From Gemmatimonadales bacterium (GTDB lineage: Bacteria > Gemmatimonadota > Gemmatimonadetes > Gemmatimonadales > GWC2-71-9), in assembly GCA_038209515.1 (NCBI GenBank), contig JBBQXQ010000003.1, positions 158 through 64,157 on the forward strand: a stretch of 64,000 bases of DNA, read 5' to 3'. Under the pieces are notes generated by a model. The model worked only from the letters and a program-made list of their open reading frames with translations, was not told where the DNA came from and ran no database searches. Shown one piece after another: positions 3,622-63,544 of the stretch. A program made the position numbers and the translations under genes. Numbering within the stretch: position 1 is the first letter of the stretch; each line of letters starts with the position of its first letter.

Positions 3622-3634
3622 TCGGGCGAATCGC

Positions 3635-7755: not shown

Positions 7756-7778
7756 TCGGGGCTTGACAAGAGAAAAAT

Positions 7779-7902: not shown

Positions 7903-7913
7903 TTACCCTCAAC

Positions 7914-7943: not shown

Positions 7944-7971
7944 CCCCGGCTCACTTTGGAGGATTCCCCGG

Positions 7972-8483: not shown

Positions 8484-8489
8484 ATCGCC

Positions 8490-8720: not shown

Positions 8721-8738
8721 CCTAGCGATCTGAGTCCA

Positions 8739-10496: not shown

Positions 10497-10545
10497 CCTC
10501 CCAGGTGGGGTACCAGGCCGCCCAGCCGCCCGCATTAGTTCCCTC

Positions 10546-23289: not shown

Positions 23290-23354
23290 GGATCTCCTCC
23301 TTACTTGTGGCGCGCTTGGCGCCGTGAGTGGACCAGCGGACGCCACTCGTGAGG

Positions 23355-23369
23355 GCAAGCCGCCGGCCA
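23355..23369 (-). promoter_or_regulatory. Candidate sigma-54 (-24/-12) promoter upstream of the TPR lipoprotein gene
   Basis: The minus strand reads TGGCCGGCGGCTTGC. The GG and GC elements have the canonical spacing of TGGCAC-N5-TTGC. The element lies about 55-65 nt upstream of ATG 23289. Confidence 0.4.
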
Positions 23370-23485
23370 CAGAGACGGAGCGCCGGGAGATGGTAGGAGT
23401 TATCTGGGAGAGAAGGAGTTACCTGAAGCGAGGAGCACCAGTACCGGAGAGATCGTGTTCCGATGGACACGGAAACGGGAGGGTG

Positions 23486-23507
23486 CTCGTGTCCGGCGGG
23501 ACACGAG
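23486..23507 (-). promoter_or_regulatory. Perfect 9-4-9 palindrome: either an activator-binding site or the terminator of the upstream operon
   Basis: The sequence is CTCGTGTCC-GGCG-GGACACGAG, 6 nt downstream of the activator gene stop and about 140 nt upstream of the candidate -12 element. An extra half-site GGACACG lies at 23465-23471. Confidence 0.4.
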
Positions 23508-23512
23508 GAGAT

Positions 23513-26565: not shown

Positions 26566-27794
26566 CGTGAGCCCCTCGATCTCTCTTCCTTGCCGACCAC
26601 GTTGATGCTGCCACTCCAGTCGATTGAGAGCGGGGGAGCGCCACGCCGCACGATCGCGCGAGCCCGGGTATCGATCAGCGGCTCGAGCCAGCCGCCGGTG
26701 GGTAAGGCGGCCGACGCGTGACAGGGCGCGGCAACATTACGGGGCAAGAACACGATATAGCCCCGTTCCCGGCGGTCCCGGAGCGCGGCAGCCAATTCTA
26801 TTTCGCCGAGGCCCGCGGCTCTCAACTGGGTGTTTCCGGACAGGGCGACGATCCGCTCGGCCAGCGACCTGGCGATCTCATCTGTTCGGGAATAGACGAG
26901 GCGTGATGACGGGGGCAGGGTCACCCCCATCAGCACATCCGGCCTGCAGGATTGAGGGCCACTCCACCAGAAGGGCGGCTGCGCCGGACGCGCCTCTGCC
27001 TGGACTACATCACTGGCCAGCGAGCGACGTAGGGAATCCGCCCCGGGTATCCCGCTGATCGGCTGAGTGCCGGTGAACTGCAGCAGAGCGTACGTGCGGC
27101 CCCAAGGCAGCGGGAAGGTGACGAATTCCGGTCGGCTCGCGACGTATTCGGCGACGGCCGGGTCACGAGTGACAACGAGATCAACTCCGCGGTCGAGCGC
27201 GTCCCGCGGATCGCCGGCCTGGCTCAGCTCGAACTCGATGGGTGGATCGTTCGGAACCACCACTCGACCCGAGGGGTCGTGGATAGCAGCAACGCGGCGG
27301 TCCACGGAGAGGAGCGGATCGGCAAAGAGACGGGGGGCGCTGTCCCGGCTGGCCCGCAGGGTAACCCGCAGCGTGCGGTCGTCCAGGGCAGCCGCAGAGT
27401 CGATTCCCAGGGCCTGGATGCCGGGCTCACGAGCTTTCCAGCTCGATGCCACAGCTCCAGCCGTGATCGGTGGGTAGTCCGTGAACTGACCGGGCTCAGG
27501 AAAGGTGAACGTCCAGATGCGGCCGGTGCTGTCGCTGCTCCAAGCATCCGCAATACCCGGGCGGATCTCCCCCCGACAGTCGACCCGAACCAGCGTCTCG
27601 AAGAGCTGGCGGAAGAGGAGTCGCTCGCTGTCGTTGGCGGGGTTGGATACTCGAGCCCAATCCACCGGATCCGTCAAAGCAACGGTAAAGGTGTCGAGGG
27701 AGGCAGCCGAGTCCCCGGACAGATGGCATTCGTCTCGTTGGTCGGGTGCGACCAGCGGCGGGGGCGCCGGCCTCGAGCTACAAGCCGCCAGCAA
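26562..27794 (-). CDS. Solute-binding-protein-like lipoprotein (family-5 SBP-like); the start region is anomalous
   Basis: The motif LFETLVRVDCRGEIRPGIADAWSSDSTGRIWTFTF resembles peptide/nickel-type SBPs. A lipobox LAAC sits at codons 2-5 of the track ORF. The obvious ATG (27816) is 1 nt out of frame. Confidence 0.6.
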   Translation of the reverse strand: MLAACSSRPAPPPLVAPDQRDECHLSGDSAASLDTFTVALTDPVDWARVSNPANDSERLLFRQLFETLVRVDCRGEIRPGIADAWSSDSTGRIWTFTFPEPGQFTDYPPITAGAVASSWKAREPGIQALGIDSAAALDDRTLRVTLRASRDSAPRLFADPLLSVDRRVAAIHDPSGRVVVPNDPPIEFELSQAGDPRDALDRGVDLVVTRDPAVAEYVASRPEFVTFPLPWGRTYALLQFTGTQPISGIPGADSLRRSLASDVVQAEARPAQPPFWWSGPQSCRPDVLMGVTLPPSSRLVYSRTDEIARSLAERIVALSGNTQLRAAGLGEIELAAALRDRRERGYIVFLPRNVAAPCHASAALPTGGWLEPLIDTRARAIVRRGAPPLSIDWSGSINVVGKEERSRGSR

Positions 27795-39534: not shown

Positions 39535-40428
39535 GTGCGCCTCGGCATACGTTGGAAAATCGTGCTTGCCTTCGCGGCGGTGTACCTGTGCTGGGGCATG
39601 ACCTACCTGGCCATGCGCATCGCGGTGCAGGACATACCACCGCATCTCATGTCGGGGGCGCGGTTCCTCGTTGCCGGTCTGGTGCTCTACCTGTGGACCC
39701 GCCGGCGCGGCGATCCCAGGCCTACCCCTATCCAATGGCGTGCCGCGGCCATGGTCGGCGCCTTCCTTCTGCTGGGCGGGAACGCGACGGTGGCCTGGGC
39801 GGAACAGCAGGTCCCCTCCGGGCTCGCCGCCGTGCTCATCGCGGTGGCTCCGATCTGGATGGTCGCCTTCGAGTGGGCCAGGGGCGGGCCACGACCGGGG
39901 GCGCGGGTGACCGCCGGACTGATCCTCGGCCTGCTGGGCCTGGCGATTCTGGTGTCGCCCAGGGGCGACGCCGCCACTCAAGTCAACCCGGTGGGTGCGG
40001 TGATGCTGGTACTCGCGTCGGCCTCATGGGCGTGGGGATCGGTCGTCTCGAAGTCGGCTCCGCTTCCGAAGTCGCCGTTCCTCGCCACCAGCATGGAAAT
40101 GATCGGGGGCGGTGTCCTGCTGCTGCTCACGGCAGCGGCGGCGGGACAGTTTGCTCATTTCAGACCCACGCAGGTATCGGCGGACGCCGTGCTGGCTTGG
40201 TTGTTTCTCGTGATCTTCGGATCACTGGTGGGCTTTACGGCGTATATCTGGCTGCTCGGCGTCACGTCGATCGCCAAGGTGGGCACCTACGCCTACGTCA
40301 ACCCGATCGTGGCGGTCTTCCTGGGTTGGGCAATCCTGGATGAGCCCGTGACCGGCAGGACGCTGCTGGCGGCGCTGGTCATTCTGGTCGGCGTGGGCCT
40401 GGTCAACATCGAATGGAAGACGAGTTGA
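39535..40428 (+). CDS. EamA/DMT family transporter
   Basis: The 297-aa protein has ten hydrophobic helices in two EamA-like halves. Confidence 0.8.
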   Translation: MRLGIRWKIVLAFAAVYLCWGMTYLAMRIAVQDIPPHLMSGARFLVAGLVLYLWTRRRGDPRPTPIQWRAAAMVGAFLLLGGNATVAWAEQQVPSGLAAVLIAVAPIWMVAFEWARGGPRPGARVTAGLILGLLGLAILVSPRGDAATQVNPVGAVMLVLASASWAWGSVVSKSAPLPKSPFLATSMEMIGGGVLLLLTAAAAGQFAHFRPTQVSADAVLAWLFLVIFGSLVGFTAYIWLLGVTSIAKVGTYAYVNPIVAVFLGWAILDEPVTGRTLLAALVILVGVGLVNIEWKTS

Positions 40429-40435
40429 CGGCGCA

Positions 40436-41289
40436 TCAACCGGGCGCCTCGGCTGCAGTCGCGTCGCCCCGCCCCGGCTCGCGGAGCTCCCTCGGTTCCT
40501 TGGCCTTTCCTCGAGCGAGCCGCTGCTGGAAGGCATCGAGATAGGTGTAGACCACCGGGGTGATGTAGAGGGTGATCAGCTGGGAGAAGAGCAGCCCGCC
40601 CACCCACGGCGATGCCCAAGGGACGGCGGGACTCGGCGCCCGCGCCCTGGCCGAGTGCGATCGGCAGGGTGCCCATCAACGCAGCCATCGTGGTCATCAT
40701 AATCGGCCGGAACCGGACGCCGGCCGCTTCCAGAATGGCCTTTCGGGCGGTGGTGTGCTCTCGCCGCTCACGCTCGATGGCGAAGTCGATCATCATGATC
40801 GCATTCTTCTTCACGATGCCGACCAGCATGATGACCCCGACGAACGCATAGATGCTGAGGTCGAGCCGGAAGATCACCAACGCCAACAGGGCCCCGAACC
40901 CTGCGAAGGGAAGGCCCGAAAGGATCGTCAGGGGGTGGATGAAGCTCTCGTACAGAATGCCGAGCACCAGGTAGATCACCAGGATCGCAAGGATGAGCAG
41001 CACCAGCAATCCTTGTTGGGCGGCCTGAAAGGCCTGCGCCGTGCCGGCGAAGCCGGTGCTGATCGTAGAAGGCAGAACCTGTCGCGCTGCCGCCTGTACC
41101 TGGTCCACCGCCGTGCCGATAGAGACGCCGGGCTGGAGGTTGAATGAAAGGGTCACCGACGGCAGCTGTCCCGTGTGATTCACCGTGAGCGGACCCGTAG
41201 CCGGCGTGATCTGAGCCAGGCTGCCCAGGGGGACCGACACCCCCTGGCGGCCGGTGATATGGAGCAGGTTCATGGCCGAGAGGTCGCGC
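40436..41289 (-). pseudogene. RND (AcrB-type) efflux pump C-terminal fragment with a +1 frameshift
   Basis: It encodes only the last 280 or so aa of a roughly 1000-aa pump (LYESFIHPLTILSGLP, VGIVKKNAIMMIDFA, RFRPIMMTTMAALMG). At about 40600 an extra G in gtgggtgggc shifts the frame. The corrected frame gives VGGLLFSQLITLYITPVVYTYLD... and ends at TGA 40436-40438. Confidence 0.72.
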
Positions 41290-41728
41290 CGGTACTGGGG
41301 CAGCAGCTCCTGGGACATGAAGGCATAGGTCTGCTCGTACTCCTCGAGCCGGTCCCTGACCTCCTGGCTTCGTATCGGCAGGCTGGTGCGGGCCGCGCCG
41401 ATCGCTTCGTGGAATTGCTGCCACCGAGTGAGTCGCTGGGCCATCGTGTGAATGAAAAGATTCGGGCGCACGCTGTAGTAGTCCCGGCGGTCGGCGGGCC
41501 GGCAGACCGCTCGAGCAGGCCGCGCTGCTCCAGCAGGCGCGCATTGGTGCTCACGCTGCCCTTGCTGACTCGGAGTTCGGCGGCGAGATCGTCCAGCGAA
41601 CGGGCATCCTCACTGACCAGCAAAAGGCCGAAGATCCGCCCCGCGATGCGCGGCAGGCCGTCAGATTCGAGGGCGACGCCCATTCGCTCGATGAAATTCA
41701 CCGTTTGCGGATCGTTGGTCTTCCTCAT
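41290..41728 (-). pseudogene. GbsR/MarR-like transcriptional regulator, frameshifted and fused to the RND fragment
   Basis: MRKTNDPQTVNFIERMGVALESDGLPRIAGRIFGLLLVS...LLEQRGLLER is followed by a 1-nt deletion at about 41497. The protein continues in another frame as VCRPADRRDYYSVRPNLFIHTMAQRL... and runs without a stop into RND sequence. Confidence 0.6.
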
Positions 41729-41773: not shown

Positions 41774-42750
41774 TCAACTGAATGATTCTACGGTCACGGA
41801 TTGGCCGGCCGGCAGACCTCGCGCCGAGCGCTGCCGCCCGATCCCCAACACCATGAGAGCGGCGACGAAGCAGAGCACGCCGGCAATCGTAAACGCCTCG
41901 ACATAGCCGCCGAGCGCGGTGCGAAGCGCGCCCGCCCCAAAGGCCGCGATCGCCGCGCCGAGCTGGTGGGCGGCCACGATCCAGCCAAACATCACCGGCC
42001 CATTCGCCTGCCCGAAGACACCTCGGGAATTCCGTGATCGATGCAGGCCGGGATGAGGTGGGTGCCGATGAGGCCGTTGGTGCTGGCGCCACAGATGAAG
42101 AAGCTGCCGGCGAGGAGCCGGAAGTCCCGGGAGCGGATTCCCTGGTTCAGGGCTGCGAGTGCGCCGACGGAGGTCGGCCCGGGCGCGGCCGCGCTTCTGC
42201 TTCCTTCGATGGCCGGCTCACCGTATCGGGTGAGTCCTACCTCCTCAGGCCGCTCCCGCAGGAACAGGAGCACCAGCGGGATCACCAGTGAGACGGCCCC
42301 GGCAACCAGGAGAGTCGCTGCCCGCCAGCCATACCGCTGAACCACGGCCGCCAGGAGCGGCAGAAAGATGAGTTGACCGGTGGCGGTGCTCGCGGTGAGA
42401 ACTCCCATCACCAGCCCTCGGCGCTCGGCGAACCAGCGGTTCACCACCGTGGCCCCGAGCACGAGCGCGGTCATCCCGGTGCCGACCCCCACCACGACGC
42501 CCCAGAGAAGCACCAGCTGCCAGAGCGCCCGAACCAGCGGAGTGAGGGCAACGCCGGTCACGAGTGTGGCTGCCGACAGGAGGACCGTGGTGCGCACGCC
42601 CAGCCGCTGCATGAGGGCCGTGGCGAACGGTCCCATCAGGCCGTAAAGGATGAGATTGATCGAGATAGCGAGGGAGATCGTGGCGCGGGTCCAGCCGAAC
42701 TCTCGCTCCAGCGGGACGATCAGAATGCTCGGCGTGGCGCGCACGCCGGC
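41774..42750 (-). pseudogene. MFS transporter remnant (N-terminally truncated, with an internal out-of-frame deletion)
   Basis: It begins mid-helix (AGVRATPSILIVPLEREFGW) immediately after the upstream stop. The sequence ...IPACIDHGIPEV then jumps at about 41995-42005 to ...FGQANGPVMFGWIVAAHQLG in another frame. By comparison with typical 12-TM MFS proteins, about 100 aa are missing. Confidence 0.7.
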
Positions 42751-42753
42751 CGA

Positions 42754-52941: not shown

Positions 52942-55284
52942 ATGCTGCTCGAGCTTCTGCTGCTGCTCCACTCCGATCCGATCGACCCACCGGGCGTGTA
53001 TCGCGGCCGGTTGGGTGAGCTGGACGTGCGGATTCCGCGGCAGGAAGCCGAGACGTCGGTCGATGGAAAGCTCGATGAGGCGGCCTGGGGTGCGGCCGCA
53101 GTGCTCACCGATTTCTCCCAGTTCTCCCCGACCGATGGTGTCCCTGCAGCCGACTCCACCCAGGTGCTGGTGTGGTACTCCCCCACAGCCATCCACTTCG
53201 GCATTCGGGCGTTCGAGGCTCACGGCCCGGTGCATGCCACGCTCGCCGATCGCGACCGCATCGCCGCCGACGACCACATCCAGATCCTGCTCAGCACGTT
53301 CAATGACGGCCGCCAGGCCAGCGTGTTCGCGGTCAATCCGTACGGGGTGCAGTCCGACGGAGCGCTGGTCGAGACCGGCTCCACCAGCGGCAACGGCTTC
53401 AACAACGCGGTGGTGAAGCGGGAAACCGCGGATCTGAGCCCCGATTTCGTGTTCGAATCGAAGGGCCGGCTCACCGAGTACGGCTACGAAGTCGAGGTGC
53501 GGATCCCATTCAAGAGCATCCGCTTTCAGCCCAGACGGGAGCAGGTGTGGGGGCTCAACGTGGTCCGCCTGGTTCAGCACTCCGGCCGGGAGGATTCCTG
53601 GACGCCGGCCAAGCGCGCCAGCGCCTCGTTCCTGGCCCAGTCGGGCCGGCTGGTGGGGCTCACCGACCTGCGCCGGGGCGTGGTACTCGACTTCACCCCG
53701 TCACTCACCTCGAGGACCACGGGCGCGCCCGGGTCGAGCGGCTGGGATTATGCCGGCGGCGGTCCAGAGCTCGGCGGCACCGTGCGCTGGGGCCTCACCA
53801 ACAACCTGACGTTAAATGGCACCGCCAACCCCGATTTCTCCCAGGTCGAGTCCGATGCGCAGCAGTTCGTCTTCGACCCGCGGAACGAGCTCTTCTTCTC
53901 GGAAAAGCGGCCCTTCTTCCTCGAGGGAATCGAGCAGTTCAGCACGCCGAACTCGCTCATCTACACCAGGCGGATCATTCAGCCGGTCGCGGCGGCCAAG
54001 CTCACCGGCAAAGCCTTCGGCACCGACCTGGCACTGCTCAGCGCGGTGGACGACAGGGCCGGCTCCGCCAGCGGGCAGGATCATCCCGTGTACAACCTGC
54101 TCCGGATTCAGCGTGACGTGGGCTCTCAGTCCCGCCTCGGCGTGGTGTACACCGACAAGATCGACGGGGACAACTACAATCGGGTGGCCGGCGCCGATTC
54201 ACGTCTCGTGTTCGGCGGCGTGTACAGCGCTCAGCTGCAGTTGGCGGGGAGCAGAACCCGACGAAACGGAATCACCGAGACTGCGCCGCTCTGGTCGGCG
54301 CGGGTGGCCAGGAACGGCCGCACCTTCGGAGCGCGCTACTCCTTCACCGGTGTCGCGGAGGACTTCCGGGCCCAGAGCGGCTTCATCTCGCGACCCGGCA
54401 TCGCGCACGCCAATCTCGACCACAGCCTTACGCTGTACGGAAAGCAGGGAGGCCCGATCGAGACCTTCACCGGCGACGTGGCGCTCGACGGAACCTGGGA
54501 GTACGACCGCTTCGTACATGGGCAGGGAATTCAGGACCAGAAGCTTCACTTCAATACCAACACCAGACTCAAGGGCGGCTGGCAGCTGGGCGCATCGGTG
54601 CTGGTGGAGTCGTTCGGCTATCCCTCCGACGTGTACACCGGTTACGCCCTGGAGGTCCCGGGCGGTGCCGGCCTCGACACGGTGCCCTTTACCGGCACGC
54701 CGACCATTCCCAATCTGGACTACGTGTTGACACTCGACACCCCGGAGTTCTCCCACTTCTCCGGTAATATCTTTTTCCTGTGGGGACACGACGAGAACTT
54801 CTTCGAGTGGGCCAGCGCCAAGATCACCTGGCTGGAGCTCACGCTCGATTGGCGGCCCACGCCCAAGCTCAGGGTCAACGGGCTCTACCGGGTGCAGTAC
54901 GTCGGGCGGCGGACCGACGGCAGCACCGTAGATCTCTGGCGGAGCCCCCGGCTCAAGGTGGAGTATCAGCTGTCCCGGCCGATCTTCCTCCGACTGGTCG
55001 GCGAGTACACCACCGAGCGGCGGGATGCTCTCCGGGACGAGAGCCGCACCGGCGCACCGATCCTGGTCTTCGATCCGGATGCCAACGGCTACCTCCGCGC
55101 GGCTGCGTTCGGTCATCGATCGTTCCGCGGTGATTTTCTCTTCTCCTACCAACCGAACCCGGGCACCGTGCTGTTTGCCGGCTATGGCAGCACGCTCCGC
55201 GACCCCACCCAGCTGGGCAGCGCAAGCCTGCGCCGGGCGGAGGACGGTTTCTTCCTCAAGTTCAGCTACTTGATTCAGATGTAG
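52942..55284 (+). CDS. CBM9-like plus DUF5916-type large beta-rich protein (probably outer membrane)
   Basis: The 780-aa protein carries an N-terminal VDGKLDEAAW...FSQFSP motif and a long beta-strand-rich C-terminus ending in an aromatic-containing ...FFLKFSYLIQM. The family assignment is from memory. Confidence 0.65.
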   Translation: MLLELLLLLHSDPIDPPGVYRGRLGELDVRIPRQEAETSVDGKLDEAAWGAAAVLTDFSQFSPTDGVPAADSTQVLVWYSPTAIHFGIRAFEAHGPVHATLADRDRIAADDHIQILLSTFNDGRQASVFAVNPYGVQSDGALVETGSTSGNGFNNAVVKRETADLSPDFVFESKGRLTEYGYEVEVRIPFKSIRFQPRREQVWGLNVVRLVQHSGREDSWTPAKRASASFLAQSGRLVGLTDLRRGVVLDFTPSLTSRTTGAPGSSGWDYAGGGPELGGTVRWGLTNNLTLNGTANPDFSQVESDAQQFVFDPRNELFFSEKRPFFLEGIEQFSTPNSLIYTRRIIQPVAAAKLTGKAFGTDLALLSAVDDRAGSASGQDHPVYNLLRIQRDVGSQSRLGVVYTDKIDGDNYNRVAGADSRLVFGGVYSAQLQLAGSRTRRNGITETAPLWSARVARNGRTFGARYSFTGVAEDFRAQSGFISRPGIAHANLDHSLTLYGKQGGPIETFTGDVALDGTWEYDRFVHGQGIQDQKLHFNTNTRLKGGWQLGASVLVESFGYPSDVYTGYALEVPGGAGLDTVPFTGTPTIPNLDYVLTLDTPEFSHFSGNIFFLWGHDENFFEWASAKITWLELTLDWRPTPKLRVNGLYRVQYVGRRTDGSTVDLWRSPRLKVEYQLSRPIFLRLVGEYTTERRDALRDESRTGAPILVFDPDANGYLRAAAFGHRSFRGDFLFSYQPNPGTVLFAGYGSTLRDPTQLGSASLRRAEDGFFLKFSYLIQM

Positions 55285-55559
55285 GTGGTCGACTTGTAGT
55301 CGGCGCGCCACAGCGCGTAGTCGCCAGCAACCGCCTGAATGCAGCTTTCCGCACTGCCCTCACCGCCCGCCACAAACTGATCGACAGCAACTTTTTAGGA
55401 TGCGTCACACCGGCTCGACTCTACCGCGTCCTCCGATGGCGTACCTCTTGCCAATACCGGTGCCGAATACTTTTGCACCCCCGCACAACTAAAGCAGCCC
55501 TACTGCGACAGCGGGTGGGCAGGGTACGGCTCGTCTCTCCTCCTACCGGAGCAGTCGCG

Positions 55560-56780
55560 ATGCGGATCCTGGTCCTGAACTACGAGTATCCACCGCTTGG
55601 CGGCGGTGCGGCTGTAGCAACAGCGGCGCTGGCGCACGGGCTGATGGAACGCGGCGTTGCCGTGGACGTGGTGACTGCCGGCGTGGGACCGGACGCGGAG
55701 CGCCGCACTCCAGACCGGCCCGCGGAGCCGCTCGAGCCGGGCAGCCTCACGGTATACCGCGTGAGGAGCCGGCGCTGCGGGGTGCACCAGGCAAGGATGG
55801 GGGACGCCGCGAGCTATCTGGTGGGCGCGTTACCCGTGATCCGGCGGCTCCTCCGCATCCACAAATACGATGCTGTCCACGTCTTCTTCTCCCTCCCGAC
55901 CGGCGCTTTGCTTCCTTTCCTCGGGCTACGCGGCACACCGGTGGTGGTGTCACTCCGTGGATCCGATGTGCCGGGCTACGACCCGCATAATTCGTCTCTG
56001 CAGCGTGCCCATCGGCTACTGGCCCCGCTGACCCGTTGGATCTGGCGCCGGGCAGATCGTGTAGTGGCGGTGTGTGAGAGCCTGGGGCAACTGGCGCTGC
56101 GTACCTGGCCCGACTTGCGCTATGGCGTAGTGCCCAACGGCGTAGACCTGACGCTGTTCCATCCCGCTGACCCGGACACTCGCCGTCCAACCAAGAAAAT
56201 CCGTTGCCTGGCGGTGGCCCGGCTGATCGAGCGGAAGGGCCTGGGAGACTTGATCCGTGGCCTCGCGCTTCTGGAGCGGGGACGCTTCGAGCTGGAAATC
56301 GTGGGTGGCGGGGCCGACGAGCAGGTGCTGCGCGACTTGGCAACCCAACTGGGTGTGGCGCAGGACGTCCGATTTCTGGGGCCGCTCTCCCGAGCCAAGG
56401 TGGCCGAACGCTATCGGGCAGCGGACCTGTTCACCCTCCCATCTTCGGCCGAGGCCTTCGGCAATGTGTTTGCCGAGGCGCTTGCGTCGGGGCTCCCCAT
56501 CGTAGGCAGCGCAACCGGCGGGATCCCCGATCTGGTGGAGCATGGTAGCAACGGTCTTCTGGTTCCTCCGGGAGATGTCCATGCGCTGGCGGGAGCGATC
56601 CGCTACCTGGCGGACGATCCGGAGCTTCGCGCCGACATGACCCTGCGGAACCGCGCGAAGGCGGAAACGACGCTGGAGTGGGCGCAGGTCACTCGCCGCT
56701 ACCTGTCCATCTACGAAGGCATACAGCGCCGCCACCCCGCCAGATCGCTGGTGGCTCAGCCCACTGCGGGCATCTCGTGA
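55560..56780 (+). CDS. Glycosyltransferase family 4
   Basis: The start is set to ATG 55560 (MRILVLNYEYPPLGGG). The C-terminal E-x7-E region is SSAEAFGNVFAEALASGLPIV. Confidence 0.85.
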   Translation: MRILVLNYEYPPLGGGAAVATAALAHGLMERGVAVDVVTAGVGPDAERRTPDRPAEPLEPGSLTVYRVRSRRCGVHQARMGDAASYLVGALPVIRRLLRIHKYDAVHVFFSLPTGALLPFLGLRGTPVVVSLRGSDVPGYDPHNSSLQRAHRLLAPLTRWIWRRADRVVAVCESLGQLALRTWPDLRYGVVPNGVDLTLFHPADPDTRRPTKKIRCLAVARLIERKGLGDLIRGLALLERGRFELEIVGGGADEQVLRDLATQLGVAQDVRFLGPLSRAKVAERYRAADLFTLPSSAEAFGNVFAEALASGLPIVGSATGGIPDLVEHGSNGLLVPPGDVHALAGAIRYLADDPELRADMTLRNRAKAETTLEWAQVTRRYLSIYEGIQRRHPARSLVAQPTAGIS

Positions 56781-58060
56781 GCAGCGTTGCGTTCTGGCTG
56801 GCCGTGGATGCGGCCAGGACCTTTGCTGCTCTCGATCTGAACGCCCATTCGCTGGACGCGTTGGCGCGCCGGCGCCTGGGCCGGCTGCTGTCCTACTCGG
56901 CTCGGAACAACGCCTTCTACCAGCGCCGGTTCCAGGCAGCAGGCATCGAGTGGTCGGATCCGATCTTGCAAGTCGATCCGTATTGCGCGCTCGCGGCCCT
57001 GCCACCGGTCTCGAAGCTCGAGCTGCGGCAGGCCGGTTCCCAGGCTCTGGCCGGGGGCCGAGTCCACCCCAAGTGGCGTTCCTCCGCCTCGTCGGGGTCC
57101 ACCGGTGAGCCGTTCCGGGTTTACTACGAGCCCCGAGCCTGGGCCACGCTCAAGTACTCGGTCAAGCTCCGGGCGCGCCGGGCTTGCGGCGTCGGGCCGA
57201 CCGATCGGGTAGTCATACTCGATGCGGTCCCTCCCGAAACGACCGCGTCCAGACTGGAGCAGGCCATCGGCTGCGGCCGGATCAGCGTGCTGCAGCCTGC
57301 GTCGGCGGTGGCCGCGGCCCTGGTGGCATTCCGGCCGAGCGCGATCTACGGTCTTCCCTCTGCGCTGCACGAGGCGGCCCGGGCACTTCAAGCGCGAGGC
57401 GACCGTCTGCCCGTCAAGGCCGTGTTCACCAGCGGAGAGCTGCTCGATGGCTCGGCGCGGGCGCTGTTGGCAGGCGCCTTCCAGGCTCCCATCTACGACA
57501 TCTACGGCACGTCGGAGACGAAGGAGATTGCCTGGGAGTGCCCTCAAGGTGGCATGCATGTGAACAACGACGTGGTGCGGCTGGAGGTGTTGGACGACTC
57601 GGGGCAGGCACTGCCGGCAGGCGAGGAAGGCAATCTCGTGGCCACCCTGCTGGTCAACCGGGCCATGCCGCTCTTCCGCTATCTCACCGGCGATCGCGGC
57701 GCTCTCTTGTCGGGGACCTGTCCCTGCGGACGTTCCTCGCCGCTCCTTGGAGTTGTCACCGGGCGGGCGGCCGACGTCCTGATTCTTCGTGGCGGCCAGC
57801 GAATCTCTCCCTATGCGCTCACCTGCGCCCTGGAGCGAGTCAGCGGCCTGCTGCGCTACCAGGTGAGCCAGCTGGATCCCGCCCGAGTCAGGGTGCGGGC
57901 CATCCTCGAGGGCGCCGCCAACCGTGAGGCGATCGCCGACCAGATGCGAAGCGCCCTTCGGTTCGACGTGGCCCCGTTTCTCGACGCCGATGTGGAGTTT
58001 GTCGATCGGCTTCCGACCGGTCCGCGCGCCAAGTTCCGGGTGGTGGAGCCGCTCCGATGA
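56777..58060 (+). CDS. Adenylate-forming enzyme, PaaK / coenzyme F390 synthetase-like (paralog 1)
   Basis: The GTG 56777 start overlaps the upstream stop (GTGA). It carries the motifs SSGSTGEPF and YGTSET, and an N-terminal NNAFYQRRF typical of this family. Confidence 0.72.
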   Translation: MSSVAFWLAVDAARTFAALDLNAHSLDALARRRLGRLLSYSARNNAFYQRRFQAAGIEWSDPILQVDPYCALAALPPVSKLELRQAGSQALAGGRVHPKWRSSASSGSTGEPFRVYYEPRAWATLKYSVKLRARRACGVGPTDRVVILDAVPPETTASRLEQAIGCGRISVLQPASAVAAALVAFRPSAIYGLPSALHEAARALQARGDRLPVKAVFTSGELLDGSARALLAGAFQAPIYDIYGTSETKEIAWECPQGGMHVNNDVVRLEVLDDSGQALPAGEEGNLVATLLVNRAMPLFRYLTGDRGALLSGTCPCGRSSPLLGVVTGRAADVLILRGGQRISPYALTCALERVSGLLRYQVSQLDPARVRVRAILEGAANREAIADQMRSALRFDVAPFLDADVEFVDRLPTGPRAKFRVVEPLR

Positions 58061-59286
58061 CAGCTCCCGGAGCGATCGTCATCGGTGGCTACGCCAACGG
58101 GGTGAGCGCGCTGCGAGGTCTCGCGCGCGCGGGTGTGCGCACGGCCGTGATCCTGACCAAATCGCACGACATCGCCCAGCACTCCCGCTATGCCCATGAG
58201 GCTCACCGGGTCATGGATCTGCAGGAGCGCCCGGACGGCCTGCTCGAGCTGCTCGAGCGGCAGGCTCAGCGGTGGCGCGGGTGGGCGATCATTCCCGCCA
58301 ACGACTATGCGCTGACCGCACTGGCTCACCATCGCGAGCTGCTGTCGCGCTGGTATCGGGTCACCGTGCCGGACCAGGAGATCGTCCGCCGGGTGGTAGA
58401 CAAGGCGGAGACCCATCGCCTTGCCCGTGAAGTCGGGGTGGATGTCCCCCGATCGTATGGACCGGCGTCGCCGATGACCGCCAGTCGCGAGGACATCCTC
58501 TATCCCGTTGTGGTGAAGCCGCTGGAGAGTGCGCTGTTCTGGGAGACGTTCGGCAAGAAGCTGATCGTCGCGCGCAATCGAGCGGAGCTGATGGCGGCTG
58601 TTACCCAGATGCAACTGGCTGGAATCGAGGCCGAGGTGTTCGACCTGGTCCCCGGTTCGGATGGTCGCTTCTTCAACTACACCGTGTACATGGACCGGCA
58701 CAGTCAGCCGGTCGCCGAGTTCTCCTTCAGGAAGCTGCGCAAGGCGCCGCCGTTCTATGGCGTGGCGCGCGCGGCCGAGGTGGCCGACCTACCGGAGCTT
58801 CGCGAGCCGACGATCGCGCTCCTCCAGCGCGTCGGCTGGCAGGGCATGGCCAGCGCCGAGTACAAGCTGGATCCCCGTGACGGCCGCTATCGCCTCATGG
58901 AAATCAACGGCCGTTGCTTCCTGACTCACGGGCTTCCCACCCGTTGCGGCGTGAACTACCCGCTGCTCGCCTGGCGCGAACACGCCCTGGGTGAGACGGT
59001 CAGCGCCCAAGCCAACGACTGGCGGGGAGTCTGGCTTCATCTCCACGCCGACCTGCTGTATACCGCGGTACAGGAGCGGGGTCCGGACTGGAGTTGGGGC
59101 GACTTCTTCCGCAGCTACCGCGGACCCTGGGTGGATGCGGTCTGGTCTCCCGGCGATCCGATGCCATTCCTGGCCCAATGGGCCGGTACCCTGCGCAAAG
59201 GGGTGCGCGGCCTGCGGGACGCACGGCAGCTCGATGAGGTGCGACGCCGCTTTCAATCCATGCCCGCTACCATGTCGGAGGCCTGA
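58057..59286 (+). CDS. ATP-grasp domain protein (carboxylate-amine ligase type)
   Basis: An ATGA overlap joins it to the upstream gene. It has a pre-ATP-grasp Rossmann-like N-terminus (AIVIGGYANGVSALRGLARAG) and a central VVKPLES...EYKLDPRDGRYRLMEINGR pattern. Confidence 0.72.
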   Translation: MTAPGAIVIGGYANGVSALRGLARAGVRTAVILTKSHDIAQHSRYAHEAHRVMDLQERPDGLLELLERQAQRWRGWAIIPANDYALTALAHHRELLSRWYRVTVPDQEIVRRVVDKAETHRLAREVGVDVPRSYGPASPMTASREDILYPVVVKPLESALFWETFGKKLIVARNRAELMAAVTQMQLAGIEAEVFDLVPGSDGRFFNYTVYMDRHSQPVAEFSFRKLRKAPPFYGVARAAEVADLPELREPTIALLQRVGWQGMASAEYKLDPRDGRYRLMEINGRCFLTHGLPTRCGVNYPLLAWREHALGETVSAQANDWRGVWLHLHADLLYTAVQERGPDWSWGDFFRSYRGPWVDAVWSPGDPMPFLAQWAGTLRKGVRGLRDARQLDEVRRRFQSMPATMSEA

Positions 59287-59314
59287 TGAAACGTGCCGTG
59301 GAGGAAGTCGCCGG

Positions 59315-60640
59315 ATGAGCGGCCCGCAGTTCGTCCAGACCGCCTGGGCTGTTCAGCGCCACTCGCGAGCTACTCGGGCGGAGGTGAAGGCCTTTCAGGA
59401 CGCCCATCTCCGGCGCCTGGTGCTGCACGCCTACGAAAACGTCCCCTACTACCGAAGGTTGTTCGACCGGCATCGGCTGCACCCCCGGCACATTCGCGGA
59501 ACGGTTGACCTCGATCTGATTCCCATCAGCTCGAAGCAGGCCATGCGCGAACGGCCGAGCCACGAGCTATTCGATCGCACCGTGGACCAGGGAAGGCTGC
59601 TGACGGTCTGCACCAGCGGCTCCACCGGCGAGCCGTTCATGATTCGGCGGACGTGGCTGGAGCAGGCCTTCAACGTGCTTTTCCGGCTGCGGTGTCAGCG
59701 ATCCTTCGGGCTCGGGCTCACCGAGCGTATCATGGCCGTGCGACGGGGGCGCGGTCACGATCCGAAAGACACCAAGCTGGTGGGCCGCTTGCTTCAGGCG
59801 GCCGGCATTCACCCGACGCTCAGAATCGACGGCCTGGTGCAGCCGCCGGAAGAGGTGGTGCGCCAGCTGGAGACGTTCCGGCCTCACCTCCTGGTGGCAT
59901 TGCCGAGTATCTTATGCCTCACGGCCGACTACCTGCTCGCCCAGGGGCGGCGGGACATCCGGCCCCGCATCCTCGCCGTTGGCGGTGAAGTCCTCACGCC
60001 GCTCATGCGCTGCCGCCTTACCCAGGCGTTCGGCGTCGAGCCGGTCCAGACCTACGCCAGCCACGAATTTCCGCTCATGGGTTGGGAGTGCGGGGTGTCC
60101 GGCGAGCTCCACACCTGCGACGACGGCGTGATCTTAGAAGTAATGCGCGACGGGCGGCCGGCCGCGGCCGGCGAGGAAGGCGAGGTGGTCGTCACCAACC
60201 TTCACGCCTATGCCATGCCCTTCATCCGTTATCGGCTGGCCGACGTGGTGACACGCGGCTCCGACCAATGCGCCTGTGGGCAGCCGTTCTCGACCATCCG
60301 CGCGATCCAGGGGCGCATGAACGACTACTTCTCGCTGCCGGACGGGCGCCGCATGCACCCGTACCGCATCCTCGAAAGACTCCTCCCGGAGGATGACATC
60401 TGGATTCGGCAATATCAGCTGCTGCAGGACCGTCCCGACCGTATCGTGATGCAGGTCGTTCCCTCACGGCCGCCGACGGCGGAGCTGCAAGAGCGGGTCG
60501 CCCGGGCGATATCGCCGCTGCTCGGCCCCGGGATCGAGTTCCAGGTCCGCATCGTCGAGGCCATTCCTCTGGGAAGCGGTGGCAAGTATCGCCATTCGCG
60601 ATCACTGGTCGCATCGATGTACGAGCCGAGCCGGGTCTGA
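59315..60640 (+). CDS. Adenylate-forming enzyme, PaaK / coenzyme F390 synthetase-like (paralog 2)
   Basis: The start is set to ATG 59315. It carries ENVPYYRRLF, TSGSTGEPF and YASHEF. It has the same architecture as 56777..58060 but is clearly diverged. Confidence 0.72.
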   Translation: MSGPQFVQTAWAVQRHSRATRAEVKAFQDAHLRRLVLHAYENVPYYRRLFDRHRLHPRHIRGTVDLDLIPISSKQAMRERPSHELFDRTVDQGRLLTVCTSGSTGEPFMIRRTWLEQAFNVLFRLRCQRSFGLGLTERIMAVRRGRGHDPKDTKLVGRLLQAAGIHPTLRIDGLVQPPEEVVRQLETFRPHLLVALPSILCLTADYLLAQGRRDIRPRILAVGGEVLTPLMRCRLTQAFGVEPVQTYASHEFPLMGWECGVSGELHTCDDGVILEVMRDGRPAAAGEEGEVVVTNLHAYAMPFIRYRLADVVTRGSDQCACGQPFSTIRAIQGRMNDYFSLPDGRRMHPYRILERLLPEDDIWIRQYQLLQDRPDRIVMQVVPSRPPTAELQERVARAISPLLGPGIEFQVRIVEAIPLGSGGKYRHSRSLVASMYEPSRV

Positions 60641-60647
60641 CGCTGAC

Positions 60648-61847
60648 ATGACCGCCGTCCACGCTCCATCCGCTGTCGCTCGCGATGAGCTGATCGTACT
60701 CGGCGGAGCGGACCGGCTTCAAGCCGAAGAGTGGAACCAGCTCGCCCGGCGGGGATTCCACCTGCACCAGTGGTTTACCGCGGCCGAGCGGTCCGGCTGG
60801 AACCCGAGGCATCTGGCGGTGCGGGGTGCGAGCGGTCTCAAGACCATCATCCCGGCCTATCTGGTCGGACCGGGGACACCCCACGATCTGCACCACCGGT
60901 GGCTGGGACCACTGCGTGACGTTGCCTCCTATGTCGGCATCCGCCTCCAGCCCGTGCTCTCCGTCCAGGCGCCGTTCGCCCACGTCTCCCAGCCGCTGGG
61001 CAACTCGAGCGGGCTCTCCAACGCGATCCTGCACGAGATCTTTTACGCCCTGGAGCAGACCGCCGAACGGGAGGGCGCCAAGGCGGTGGCCTGGCCATTC
61101 GTGGATACCTATTGCGACCGCCTCATCGACGTCGCCCGGGCTCGGGGTTACGCGGTGCTGTACTCCGGTGCCACGGCAACGATGCGGGTACGGTGGTCCT
61201 CGTTTGATGAGTATGTCGCCAGCCGAAGCAAGAACGTGCGCCGAACCATCCTGGCTGACATCGCCTCCATCGGCGCCGCCGGCCTTCGGACCACGCTGGC
61301 CAGCGATTTCGACCGCGACGCCTCCCACATGGACCGTCTGTACCGCGATGCTTTTCGCAGCCGGCACGGAGGCGAGTCGCCGGTTGCCCCCCATCTCTTT
61401 CAGCAGCTCGGCCGGCGGCAGACTCCGGAGATCTTCGCGCACCTCGCCTGGCACGGCGACCGCCTGGTGGGAACCAGCCTGAATCTCTTCACCCCCGAAC
61501 GACTGGATGGGACCTTCGCTGCCTTCAGCCCGGAGCATCGTACCAGCGGTGTGTTCTACAACGATCTCTGCTACGAGCCCCTTCGGGTGGCAATCCGGGA
61601 GGGCGTCTCCCACATCGACCTGGGGCCCAACGCGCTCTATGCCAAGGTGCTCCGCGGCGCGGTGCTTCAGCGCAGGATGATTCTGATTCGGGGGATCACG
61701 CCACGCAGGCATCGTATGCTGTCCATGCTCGGCCACCTGGTTGCCGGCCGGATCCAGCAGCAGGAGCGGAAAGCGCTGGGATCGCTCTGGGGCCCGCGGT
61801 GTTTCGTGGAAGAGAAAGAGGCGGCAGGGGCGGAGCACGACCGTTGA
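60648..61847 (+). CDS. FemAB-like / DUF482-type GNAT-fold acyltransferase
   Basis: The start is set to ATG 60648. The roughly 400-aa length and the blocks (HLHQWFTAAE, LSVQAPF, FDEYVASRSKNVRRTI, LYAKVLRGA) recall FemAB-related proteins found in exopolysaccharide loci. This is from memory and not searched. Confidence 0.62.
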   Translation: MTAVHAPSAVARDELIVLGGADRLQAEEWNQLARRGFHLHQWFTAAERSGWNPRHLAVRGASGLKTIIPAYLVGPGTPHDLHHRWLGPLRDVASYVGIRLQPVLSVQAPFAHVSQPLGNSSGLSNAILHEIFYALEQTAEREGAKAVAWPFVDTYCDRLIDVARARGYAVLYSGATATMRVRWSSFDEYVASRSKNVRRTILADIASIGAAGLRTTLASDFDRDASHMDRLYRDAFRSRHGGESPVAPHLFQQLGRRQTPEIFAHLAWHGDRLVGTSLNLFTPERLDGTFAAFSPEHRTSGVFYNDLCYEPLRVAIREGVSHIDLGPNALYAKVLRGAVLQRRMILIRGITPRRHRMLSMLGHLVAGRIQQQERKALGSLWGPRCFVEEKEAAGAEHDR

Positions 61848-63307
61848 CCAGCACCGAGATATCCCTCTCCATCCCCAACACGGGGCGGGCTCGTCCGCAC
61901 CAGGGGTTGTTGCGCCGGATCGCGGCCTACGGTCTGTCCCGGGGGACCACGGAGATCCTCGTAGTCCTTCGCTCGGTCCTGCTGGCCGCCCTCCTGGGGC
62001 CGGCGGCGTTCGGAACCTGGGCGCTCCTCCGGATGGGCATGCGCTACTCTGGGCTGGCCGGCCTCGGCGTGTTCCGTGGCCTCGAGGTCGAGCTGCTCCA
62101 TGCGGATGCGAAGGGAATTGCCCGCCGGCACGACTCGCCTGCCGCCACGGCGCTCGGCTTCATCCTGCTGGTCGGCGGAGGTCTCTCCGCCCTTGCCATC
62201 GCCGCCAGCTTCGCCGTGCCCGACACTCACTACCGGCTCCTGCTCCGCGGGTTTGCCGTCGCCAGCCTGGCCGAGCTGATCTACGGCTATGCGATGGTCT
62301 GTATCCGGGTTCGCAGCGGACTGCGCCACTTCGCCGTTCTGGAGACCGGTACCGCGGTGTTTCACGTGCTGCTGGCGGTCGGCCTGGCCCGGATCTGGGG
62401 ATTGGCCGGTGCGTTTGCCGGCCTCGCGGCAGGCAACCTGATCGGTATCGCGGTCGCGGCACGGTGGGTGTCCCTCCGTCCGGCACTGGCCATGGAGCCG
62501 TTGCGCCGCCTGTTGCACGTGGGGTTGCCGGTCGCGCTCACCAGCTGCGTGGGCATTCTGCTGGTGACATCCGATCGGTGGGTGGTGGCGTTCTGGGGTG
62601 GCCCGACGATGCTCGGGTATTACGCCCTGGGTGCGTCCGGCACCTCCGGCGCTGCCGCCCTGGCGCTGGTGATCCGGCAGGTCGTGTTCCGCGAGGTCTA
62701 CGGCGAAACATTTTCGGCCGGTGCCGCCACGGCGCTGCGAGCCCATCTCGAGCGCGCGCTGCTCCCCTTCGCGCGACTGCTGCCGCCGGTGCTCGGTGCC
62801 CTCGGACTGCTCGCGGGGCCGGTGGTGGCGCGGGTGCTGCCGGGCTACACGGCTGCGATCGCGCCGGCCCGCCTGTTCGTGCTGGCCGGAGCAGCCATCG
62901 GGCTGGTGAATCTGGCGGCCGTCGGCGCGGTGGCCGCCGGCCAGCAGCGCCGCCTTCCGATGTACGCGGGCGGCGCACTCGCGGTCACCACCATTCTCTC
63001 GGTGCTCGCGCTGTTGGGCGGAGCCGGTCTCGAGGGTGTGGCGGCTGCGGCGCTCGTGGGCCATTTGTCGTACGCCGCGGCGGTCCTCCGGCTCATCGTC
63101 AGGGAGTCGGGTACGCCCCACGCGGATCGCTTCGTCCTCAGCACGCTGCTGCCGCTGGTGTGGTGCGCGGTTGCGGTTGCGGTTGCCGGCCGGTTGGTAG
63201 TGGACTACACGATAGCGTCCGCTGTGCTCGGGCTCGGCGTGTACGTGCTTCTCCTGCTCCCGCTGGGGGCCGGGTGGCGCACCGAGTGGAGGAGACTGCT
63301 ATACTAA
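61844..63307 (+). CDS. Polysaccharide biosynthesis / flippase-like (MOP superfamily) membrane protein
   Basis: The TTG 61844 start overlaps the upstream stop (TTGA). About 12-14 hydrophobic helices are present, with the N-terminal pattern GTTEILVVLRSVLLAALLGPAAFG. Confidence 0.68.
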   Translation: MTSTEISLSIPNTGRARPHQGLLRRIAAYGLSRGTTEILVVLRSVLLAALLGPAAFGTWALLRMGMRYSGLAGLGVFRGLEVELLHADAKGIARRHDSPAATALGFILLVGGGLSALAIAASFAVPDTHYRLLLRGFAVASLAELIYGYAMVCIRVRSGLRHFAVLETGTAVFHVLLAVGLARIWGLAGAFAGLAAGNLIGIAVAARWVSLRPALAMEPLRRLLHVGLPVALTSCVGILLVTSDRWVVAFWGGPTMLGYYALGASGTSGAAALALVIRQVVFREVYGETFSAGAATALRAHLERALLPFARLLPPVLGALGLLAGPVVARVLPGYTAAIAPARLFVLAGAAIGLVNLAAVGAVAAGQQRRLPMYAGGALAVTTILSVLALLGGAGLEGVAAAALVGHLSYAAAVLRLIVRESGTPHADRFVLSTLLPLVWCAVAVAVAGRLVVDYTIASAVLGLGVYVLLLLPLGAGWRTEWRRLLY

Positions 63308-63311: not shown

Positions 63312-63341
63312 TTGACATTCCGACTTCCTTAGTCGTAATTT
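63312..63341 (+). promoter_or_regulatory. Candidate sigma-70 type promoter with a leader of about 200 nt before the sulfurtransferase gene
   Basis: TTGACA (63312-63317) is separated by 18 nt from TAATTT (63336-63341). Confidence 0.45.
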
Positions 63342-63544
63342 GGAAAACCGAATCTCACTGATGCCAACCATGCCGCGTCTCTCCTGCTGCTGTACCACCG
63401 AGCCACCTCGGCTCGAGGGGGAGACAGCCGCGACGCGCTGATCGCAGGGCGCTTTCAGAATTCCGCCGGCCGCACCTCCCCCGAGGACCGCGGCCGGTAT
63501 GCGTTTGGGACGGATAGAGATGCAAGCCTACTAAGGAGAGAGTC

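Follow-up and report, generated by a model that had tools for sequence, protein, structure and literature searches.

A mosaic operon of amide-forming ligases, a GT4 glycosyltransferase and a Wzx-type transporter behind a conserved, putatively sigma-54-dependent control region in Gemmatimonadales

Exopolysaccharide (EPS) loci of the XrtA/PEP-CTERM type are controlled by the sigma-54-dependent regulator PrsR (TIGR02915). In Rubrivivax gelatinosus and Thauera, such loci encode a FemAB-related protein, a CapK-type ligase, GT4 glycosyltransferases and Wzx, dispersed among ~60 genes, which also include those for exosortase, Wza, Wzy and a tyrosine kinase (PMC3684757). In loci for amide-decorated glycans, considered here under Wzx-dependent systems and represented by the glucuronamide-containing HS:2 capsule of Campylobacter jejuni, glycosyltransferase genes lie beside the gene for an ATP-grasp-type ligase, gene content varies strongly from strain to strain, and the sugar unit carries an amine substituent (PMC11800379). 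The side-chain machinery of peptidoglycan (Aslfm, FemX/FemABX, MurF and the lipid II flippase) builds a peptide on a sugar carboxylate before flipping (for background on Aslfm, Fem and Mur ligases, see PMC2922099). MprF pairs a transferase of the Fem/MprF fold with a dedicated flippase, and the mycothiol and bacillithiol pathways combine a GT4 enzyme (MshA or BshA) with an ATP-dependent amino-acid ligase and a (tandem) GNAT. Here, we analyze a 64,000-nucleotide (nt) stretch of DNA from an uncultured soil bacterium of the Gemmatimonadales (contig JBBQXQ010000003.1, positions 158 to 64,157), referred to as the window, and within it a six-gene operon that partly resembles several of these systems and belongs fully to none. 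The Gemmatimonadota are abundant in soils, and to our knowledge almost nothing is known about their cell surface or specialized metabolism. The locus is not described in the literature that we searched on DUF5916, on COG3146/PF04339, on CapK combined with ATP-grasp, and on EPS clusters of Gemmatimonadota.

The six genes form a real operon. They are open reading frames (ORFs) that all lie on the + strand, between positions 55560 and 63307 (Table 1), and the coordinates and junctions given in an original prediction made from the sequence were all confirmed. Three junctions are 4-nt overlaps (GTGA at 56777, ATGA at 58057 and TTGA at 61844); the other two are gaps of 28 nt, between the ATP-grasp gene and ligase 2 and including a GGAGGA ribosome-binding site, and of 7 nt, between ligase 2 and the Fem-like gene. 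Independent gene calls on a metagenome contig of identical sequence agree, with the same starts for GT4 through ligase 2. The transporter start is the least certain of the six, and gene callers pick downstream starts in relatives; however, residues 23-37 are invariant in seven orthologs, so translation starts upstream of them. In comparisons with close relatives, the ratio of nonsynonymous to synonymous substitution rates (dN/dS) was 0.08-0.30 for all six genes (the ligase 1 row of locus L016, a paralog misalignment, was ignored). All six are therefore functional genes under purifying selection and not chance ORFs. A scan of the operon revealed no internal terminators or sigma-70 promoters beyond chance.

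Table 1. Features of the operon, its control region and its immediate flanks (window coordinates).
Feature	Coordinates	Strand	Remarks
DUF5916 protein	52942..55284	+	780 amino acids (aa); Pfam DUF5916, E = 5e-15
Palindrome TGTAGTCGGCGCGCCACA (TGTAG-N8-C(T/C)ACA)	55295..55312	+	Candidate enhancer (upstream activating sequence, UAS) for a sigma-54 activator
Sigma-54-type -24/-12 element TGGCGTACCTCTTGC (GG-N10-GC)	55437..55451	+	Putative; conservation, consensus match
Leader, ~100 nt, with conserved blocks	55452..55559	+	Alignment, consensus fold
GT4 retaining glycosyltransferase	55560..56780	+	406 aa
PaaK/CapK-type adenylate-forming ligase 1	56777..58060	+	427 aa; GTG start overlapping the GT4 stop
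ATP-grasp carboxylate-amine ligase, COG3919-type	58057..59286	+	409 aa
PaaK/CapK-type adenylate-forming ligase 2	59315..60640	+	441 aa
Fem-like tandem-GNAT transferase, COG3146	60648..61847	+	399 aa
PST/Wzx-type MOP transporter	61844..63307	+	487 aa; TTG start inferred
Conserved motif TTGACAT..CGAC-N7-GTCGTAATTT	63312..63341	+	Directly 3' of the transporter stop

The enzyme families proposed in the original prediction were borne out by Pfam and NCBIfam profiles, sequence motifs, AlphaFold models and, for the transporter, its orthologs. The GT4 protein matches Pfam Glycos_transf_1 with 131 bits and Glyco_transf_4 with 82 bits, and its E-x7-E motif reads EAFGNVFAE. Its nearest solved structures are PimB', MshA and BshA, with PimA also among the top matches, and its best full-length matches to models and structures include BshA and MshA. 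Against NCBIfam, it scores 113.5 bits for BshA (cut-off, 273.7), 108.7 bits for MshA (cut-off, 462.5) and 118 bits for the stp2 model (cut-off, 409), and it matches the MGlcDAG and GlcN-PG synthase models generically and below cut-off. None of the six proteins approaches the cut-off of any NCBIfam equivalog, and profile searches assign none to a characterized pathway, as had been anticipated. Ligases 1 and 2 are 31% identical to each other, and motif, catalytic lysine and structure match place both in the ANL/PaaK-like family. Their phosphate-binding loops read SSGSTGEPF and TSGSTGEPF, respectively, and the C-terminal lysine lies within the segments GPRAKFR and GSGGKYR. Ligase 1 matches the AMP-binding family with 33 bits and DVU_1553-family/PaaK models with E-values of 1e-35 to 1e-22, all below cut-off. 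Ligase 2 matches the PaaK structure 2y27 in the PDB (E = 7e-23), its NCBIfam matches are below cut-off, and its orthologs show a weak CapK_C Pfam match. Neither is an ortholog of PaaK itself by TIGR02155 (79 and 94 bits; cut-off, 646 bits), and there is no paa gene context.

The ATP-grasp protein is weakly recognizable by sequence: phmmer found no match in the PDB, and profile searches returned only weak generic matches, none significant to Ddl/Asl-type enzymes. Its AlphaFold model (predicted local distance difference test [pLDDT] score of 91) shows the fold, and MEINGR in its sequence is the Mg-binding E-x-N motif. In Foldseek, the model matches biotin carboxylase, PurK and L-amino-acid ligase (TM-score of ~0.6, E = 3e-16), which are neighbors at the superfamily level only. 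As modeled, the protein has the ATP-grasp superfamily's three-domain fold and belongs to it; the label "D-aspartate ligase" carried by its relatives in JGI is an automatic annotation. The Fem-like protein scores 60.4 bits against Pfam FemAB_like (cut-off, 27), and its AlphaFold model (pLDDT of 89) is a tandem GNAT. Its top Foldseek matches are aminoacyl-tRNA-dependent enzymes, namely the peptide synthases Sbb17/Sba18, FemX, FemA and the MprF synthase domain, which act on an amino-sugar antibiotic core (streptothrisamine, for Sbb17/Sba18), peptidoglycan precursors and a membrane lipid. Tandem GNATs that use acyl-CoA, a clavulanate-pathway protein and VipF, are also among the matches. By profile and modeled fold, the protein is predicted to be a FemABX/MprF-type transferase with either aminoacyl-tRNA or acyl-CoA as donor. 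These five enzymes are predicted to be soluble.

The transporter has 12-14 hydrophobic segments. Taken alone, the window protein stays below the Pfam Polysacc_synt cut-off (19.8 versus 28.2 bits), but all seven of its orthologs match Polysacc_synt (PF01943; E ≤ 0.1, best E = 1e-9), and five of the seven match Polysacc_synt_3 (PF13440) at the same threshold (best E = 5e-8). Because all seven orthologs match Polysacc_synt, sequence profiles place the transporter in the Wzx/PST branch of the MOP superfamily. All characterized PST/Wzx-family members that we know of move lipid-linked glycans.

Compared with the systems introduced above, the locus shows a different mixture of genes. Amide-decorated glycan loci hold priming, polymerizing and sugar-nucleotide genes that the window locus lacks; none of those compared combines two PaaK-type ligases with an ATP-grasp ligase and a Fem-like transferase, and no sigma-54 control is described for them. 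The C. jejuni capsule, furthermore, is exported by an ABC transporter, unlike the PST/Wzx-type export predicted here (PMC11800379). Wzx/Wzy-dependent loci share the PST flippase, but a priming transferase, a Wzy polymerase, a chain-length regulator and an outer-membrane exporter were not found among the ~40 window genes scanned or in the ±10-kb flanks examined; for the first three, this agrees with the original prediction. HfsK of the Caulobacter holdfast, set beside the Fem-like protein by description, is a stand-alone cyclic di-GMP effector encoded outside a ligase operon (PMC5362036). The likeness to XrtA/PEP-CTERM loci, which the original prediction had raised, fails each test. The window locus is compact, and no exosortase, PEP-CTERM or PrsK/PrsR/PrsT gene was found among the window genes scanned. 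The Fem-like protein has no NCBIfam match at E ≤ 0.01, and neither TIGR03019, the model of the PEP-CTERM-associated FemAB-family protein, nor TIGR03098, that of the exosortase-A-associated acyl-CoA ligase, is among the ligase matches; both models are assumed to be in the release searched. The window's response regulator, kinase and TPR protein score 348, 69 and 72 bits against the PrsR, PrsK and PrsT models, whose cut-offs are 503, 300 and 312 bits. We therefore rejected a PEP-CTERM/exosortase link. An anti-phage defense system, considered on account of a "GT4-conflict" Pfam match, was rejected as well: no PADLOC model matched any of seven proteins, and the Pfam match is weaker than those to generic GT4 models.

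To place the operon among its relatives, we compared ~20 related loci from genomes and metagenomes, onto which 18 reference proteins were mapped. The six genes are one variant of a mosaic, gene-swapping locus and not a conserved unit. In Gemmatimonadales, the site is fixed, running from genes for an M28 peptidase and DUF5916 to a rhodanese gene, and the gene sets within it differ. The window set recurs in L016, a partial contig that covers only ATP-grasp to flippase. L005, with 94% DNA identity, has two additions: a BKACE gene, placed precisely in the 28-nt junction of ATP-grasp and ligase 2, and a GNAT gene where Fem-like and flippase meet. L002 lacks the flippase and additionally carries BKACE, a second ATP-grasp of the PGM1 type, three further GNATs and a formyltransferase. 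The ATP-grasp gene is missing from L051 and L052, the Fem-like gene from L010, L018 and L047, and the GT4 gene from L013 and L014. In L050 (86% DNA identity), a 7.75-kb block from DUF5916 through ligase 2 is replaced by 363 bp; the Fem-like and flippase genes stay and, on their own, are still under purifying selection by dN/dS. Two Gemmatimonadaceae loci carry GT4, ATP-grasp, ligase 2, a GNAT, an N-terminally shortened MurF-like ligase and ligase 1, without a flippase.

The commonest core is GT4-ligase 1-ATP-grasp, which stays together in most loci, and no gene accompanies GT4 more constantly than ligase 1. Ligase 2, the Fem-like gene and the flippase are gained and lost. All variants encode one or more GNAT-type transferases. 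The original prediction had expected the compact six-gene arrangement to be co-conserved, which holds only in part, given the variability of the last three genes and the two extra genes inside the operon of the 94%-identical L005. Cassettes are thus gained and lost with gene precision at a fixed site between genomes 86-94% identical in DNA, a pattern typical of surface-glycan modification loci. Traces of gene decay were also seen: a 28-codon remnant of the ligase 1 C-terminus at 9495-9578 of L014 and, at ~3900-3950 of L013, a trace of the otherwise missing GT4 gene, consisting of its start codon and a few initial bases. A GNAT-flippase fusion in L047 (13855-15945), examined as a Rosetta stone, was rejected: the middle of its 696-aa product reads out of frame and L018 has two separate ORFs, so the merger is probably a frameshift.

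The most constant part of the locus is its upstream control region, which is more conserved than the genes it drives. The original prediction had missed the sigma-54-type promoter and palindrome that head the Gemmatimonadales variants. In the spacer between DUF5916 and GT4, these two blocks are conserved far above their surroundings, with the -24/-12 element ~145 nt 3' of the palindrome in the window and 142-164 nt across loci. The columns GGC.T..CTCTTGCC of the element are invariant in 10 aligned loci, and it fits the sigma-54 consensus TGGCAC-N5-TTGC, as TGGC-N7-TTGC, with the exact GG-N10-GC spacing. The element lies upstream of the first gene in 14/14 Gemmatimonadales variants and the palindrome is present in 13/14; neither was found in the two Gemmatimonadaceae loci. 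The control region is independent of which gene comes first, be it GT4, ligase 1 (L013), ATP-grasp (L014) or Fem-like (L050). Since L050 keeps the palindrome and has no DUF5916 gene, the palindrome is not simply the terminator of that gene. The bare sigma-54 pattern is not significantly enriched in the window (5 matches versus 1.9 expected), and the argument for sigma-54 therefore rests on position and conservation. From these alignments, we infer a sigma-54 promoter with an upstream enhancer and an untranslated leader of ~100 nt, behind which the gene cargo varies.

A sigma-54 activator with a GAFTGA motif is encoded at 23513-25057, although it may not be cognate to the operon. At 22249-26736 (- strand), genes for a TPR protein, a HAMP histidine kinase and a sigma-54-dependent response regulator (GAFTGA) are clustered; this cluster may regulate sigma-54 promoters of the genome, and nothing ties it specifically to the operon. 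Within the leader, the GGAG ribosome-binding site of GT4 (55540-55556) can pair with an upstream CTCC tract (55528-55536). In the consensus fold, this pairing is conserved in 10 loci with no compensatory changes, and the hairpin may serve translational control. A riboswitch or other known RNA was rejected, as Rfam gave no match at E ≤ 1 over 52-64 kb, leaders included.

At the other end of the operon, the motif directly behind the transporter gene is invariant in six loci, down to ~56% protein identity, and lies below the threshold of our promoter scan. It resembles a -35/-10 pair (TTGACA-N18-TAATTT) whose boxes enclose a CGAC/GTCG inverted repeat, and is probably a sigma-70-type promoter of the downstream rhodanese gene, whose product is 3-mercaptopyruvate sulfurtransferase-like. 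As the rhodanese gene has its own promoter-like motif, this motif delimits the operon on its 3' side. An AT-rich hairpin (-12.6 kcal/mol, z = -2.4) overlaps the motif in the window, but its structure is not conserved. Another hairpin, rich in GC, GCCGGCCGC-ACCTC..CC.GAGG..-GCGGCCGG, at 63465-63497, ~50 nt before the rhodanese start codon, is almost invariant in the window, L005, L050, L051, L018 and L047 and matches nothing in Rfam; an attenuator or another regulatory RNA element is conceivable.

We then asked what the wider ATP-grasp family, 537 clusters (50% identity) at E < 1e-30, indicates about function. One relative (P0305) has an N-terminally fused PST flippase, another (P0270) is fused with two GT4 domains, a third (P0284) with a WecG/TagA-family transferase and a fourth (P0325) with a CE4 polysaccharide deacetylase; known WecG/TagA-family members use lipid-linked acceptors. 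Should some of these fusions turn out to be merged gene calls, they would still place the ATP-grasp gene next to genes for glycan assembly. In three other groups, namely Acidobacteriota, Thermoleophilia and a deltaproteobacterial metagenome-assembled genome, the ATP-grasp gene has GT2 genes at its side. The closest long fusion, P0252, was rejected as informative: no Pfam domain was recognized in its C-terminal half, which resembles neither ligase 2 nor the transporter. As a separate observation, a triad of an ATP-grasp gene (39-49% identical to that of the window), a PaaK-like ligase gene and an Ldh_2-family dehydrogenase gene recurs in L023-L029 and L032, whose hosts are Deltaproteobacteria, Binatia, Planctomycetota, Verrucomicrobiota and Acidobacteriota, sometimes near sulfotransferase, thiamine pyrophosphate (TPP)-enzyme, GT2, IspD-like or HAD genes. 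This triad is an uncharacterized module of its own.

Taken together, these findings give about an even chance to the reading that the locus is an accessory toolbox, under sigma-54 control and variable between strains, for decorating a lipid-anchored glycan. Genes elsewhere in the genome would prime that glycan and, were it polymeric, assemble it. As acceptor, either a glycolipid or a sugar unit linked to polyprenyl phosphate is conceivable. In the pathway we propose, in which the lipid anchor, all substrates, the sequence of steps and the sigma-54 dependence are our inference, an enhancer-binding protein would bind the TGTAG-N8-C(T/C)ACA palindrome and activate the -24/-12 promoter, and the six genes would be transcribed and translated as a coupled unit. 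GT4 would add a sugar at the cytoplasmic face of the membrane. The PaaK-type ligases would activate carboxylates as acyl-AMP and the ATP-grasp ligase as acyl-phosphate, and together they would form amide (or ester) bonds that place an amino acid, a short pseudopeptide or an acyl group on the sugar. The Fem-like tandem GNAT might add a further residue from aminoacyl-tRNA or from acyl-CoA made by a ligase, after which the Wzx-type transporter would flip the decorated lipid-linked unit to the outer face. Strains would differ in the ligases, acyltransferases and capping enzymes behind the same promoter, and with different enzyme sets the substituent should therefore differ between strains.

Several findings argue for decoration of a lipid-linked glycan. 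ATP-grasp relatives are fused to a PST flippase, GT4, WecG/TagA and a polysaccharide deacetylase, GT2 genes adjoin the ATP-grasp gene in three other phyla, and the transporter orthologs are of the PST/Wzx type (7/7). The original prediction, that a lipid-linked sugar is decorated before flipping, gains support from the fusions and the orthologs. The nearest structures of the Fem-like protein are aminoacyl-tRNA-dependent transferases that act on an amino-sugar core, peptidoglycan precursors and a membrane lipid; the gene-precise exchange of cassettes resembles that of surface-glycan modification loci; and the conserved -24/-12 element and palindrome are accompanied by a GAFTGA activator in the window. 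A toolbox acting on an acceptor made elsewhere would explain the lack of priming and polymerizing genes, the survival of the Fem-like and flippase genes alone in L050 and the cassette-style variability.

Other findings weigh against this reading. Neither the 64-kb window nor the 10 kb around any related locus revealed a gene for a priming phosphoglycosyltransferase, Wzy, Wzz/Wza, an O-antigen ligase or the synthesis of nucleotide sugars. The transporter is absent from about one-third of the variants (L002, L052 and L013) and from both Gemmatimonadaceae loci, and the closest solved relatives of GT4 (PimB', MshA and BshA) use small molecules or lipids, not undecaprenyl-linked sugars. The ATP-grasp fusions are each unique or nearly so in the database and share only 26-36% identity with the window enzyme, and in six other phyla the ATP-grasp gene is paired with a convergent PaaK-like ligase gene and an Ldh_2 dehydrogenase gene, in contexts that are not clearly glycan loci. 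The sigma-54 assignment, finally, draws on a consensus match and conservation.

These points leave room for a soluble small molecule, a lesser but real possibility and the main rival. Under this explanation, the ATP-grasp, PaaK-type and Fem-type enzymes would build, in the cytoplasm, a pseudopeptide independent of nonribosomal peptide synthetases (NRPSs), GT4 would glycosylate it as MshA and BshA do, and the MOP transporter would export it where present; the product might be a secondary metabolite, a compatible solute or a thiol-like compound of low molecular weight. The predicted solubility of all five enzymes fits this, as do the variants without a transporter, the failure to find a lipid-carrier priming gene nearby and the Ldh_2 triads in six other phyla outside glycan loci. 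Enzymes of these types also form amide bonds in natural-product pathways. The structure matches include the PaaK-like ligases 6siw and AjiA1 (6wuq), the latter from a benzoxazole pathway; Fem-like enzymes form amide bonds in streptothricin-type pathways; and AlpO, a COG3146 GNAT, is encoded in the argolaphos gene cluster (PMC8976061). The accessory genes of relatives (PGM1-type pre-ATP-grasp, MurF-like, BKACE [Kce-like, 237 bits], and the GNAT and formyltransferase capping enzymes) would suit a small-molecule pathway. MshA and BshA, of mycothiol and bacillithiol synthesis, are among the best full-length matches of GT4. However, GT4 scores far below the MshA and BshA cut-offs, no LmbE-type deacetylase or MshC/BshC-type cysteine ligase was found at any variant locus, and the PST transporter is an addition relative to those pathways. 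That transporter is of the PST/Wzx and not the MATE type, the fusion partners of the ATP-grasp family are glycan-assembly proteins, and the Fem-like and flippase genes alone in L050 are hard to fit with a linear small-molecule pathway.

Decoration of a lipid-anchored glycan includes, as a sub-case whose probability is part of that reading's and not additional to it, an aminoacylated or peptidyl glycolipid from an MprF-like system. We regard it as unlikely. Here, GT4 would make a diacylglycerol- or phospholipid-based glycolipid, as PimA/PimB and the MGlcDAG synthases do, the ligases and the Fem-like enzyme would aminoacylate its head group, and the MOP transporter would flip it, altering surface charge. 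PimB' and PimA are the top solved matches of GT4, and the MGlcDAG and GlcN-PG synthase models were matched, but every GT4 match is generic and below cut-off. The Fem-like model aligns with the MprF and A-PGS synthase domains, and the two-gene remnant in L050 mirrors the synthase-plus-flippase logic of MprF; in MprF, however, the two are fused, whereas here they are separate genes, and the flippase domain of MprF has no relation to MOP proteins. Such a system would need neither a priming transferase nor a polymerase. We know of no PST-family protein that flips diacylglycerol lipids, which counts against this sub-case.

Modification of peptidoglycan precursors, with the ATP-grasp, Fem-like and, in Gemmatimonadaceae, MurF-like enzymes adding side-chain residues to UDP-MurNAc-peptide or lipid II for a dedicated MOP flippase, is highly improbable: the three enzyme families are common to stem and cross-bridge synthesis, but the likeness is at the level of fold families (for the ATP-grasp enzyme, to solved Ddl/Asl-type enzymes at fold level only, "D-aspartate ligase" being an automatic label), GT4 and two PaaK-type ligases have no role in wall chemistry, the transporter is of the PST and not the MurJ/MVF type, and the locus, unlike core wall synthesis, is dispensable, accessory and highly variable among close relatives.

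A bolder and rather doubtful reading is that the locus makes an undescribed envelope molecule of Gemmatimonadota: a lipid-anchored sugar bearing a short peptide that is made without ribosomes or NRPSs, in the manner of a miniature peptidoglycan precursor. Ligases of the ATP-grasp, PaaK-type, MurF-like and tRNA-dependent Fem-like kinds, mixed and matched, would build the peptide, and gene-precise exchange of cassettes behind one fixed sigma-54 promoter and enhancer would reprogram its composition from strain to strain.

For a putative glycoconjugate modification operon, the unusual features are four different amide-bond-forming chemistries packed beside one glycosyltransferase, gene-precise cassette exchange, and a control region more conserved than its cargo genes. 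Should a surface glycoconjugate be the product, much of the surface diversity at strain level would be determined by this locus, environmentally switched and relevant to recognition by phages, predators or hosts; if it is soluble, it would represent a new family of NRPS-independent glycopeptides. The COG3919 ATP-grasp enzymes (>500 clusters at 50% identity), the CapK-type ligases and the COG3146 Fem-like GNATs are uncharacterized subfamilies and offer enzyme leads, and the variant loci form a natural knock-in/knock-out series for assigning the contribution of each gene.

The DUF5916 gene lies upstream of the promoter of the operon. It is directly upstream of the control region in every Gemmatimonadales locus with a recovered left flank except L050, including the GT4-less L013 and L014; it adjoins wherever GT4 occurs in Gemmatimonadales and is missing together with GT4 through ligase 2 in L050. 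DUF5916 is thus a neighbor co-inherited with the GT4-to-ligase block. The link suggested in the original prediction for a CBM9/DUF5916 protein is supported at least at the level of co-inheritance. At E ≤ 0.01, the protein showed no CBM9 domain.

Elsewhere, the window carries housekeeping genes: dnaA, dnaN, yidC, mnmE, mutS, ddl, holA and those for peptidases, an OtsA/B fusion and a POT transporter. The similarity of the ORF at 40293-41609 (- strand) to AcrB-type RND pumps is confined to their C-terminal quarter (positions 764-1000 of the 1021 in the profile), and the 253-aa ORF at 41992-42753 (- strand) matches only part of an MFS transporter; both may be truncated genes, pseudogenes or artifacts of ORF picking. 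At the left edge, a partial TPR ORF (1-2274, + strand) scores 84 bits against TIGR04510, "putative peptide modification system cyclase" (cut-off, 400), and is followed by ORFs at 2695-3621 and 3608-4516 with no family match. The genes dnaN (4968-6224, - strand), dnaA (6304-7902, - strand), yidC (8721-10496, + strand) and mnmE (10447-11871, + strand) are clustered, which makes the 7903-8720 spacer or its vicinity, ~47 kb from the operon, the probable site of the chromosomal replication origin.

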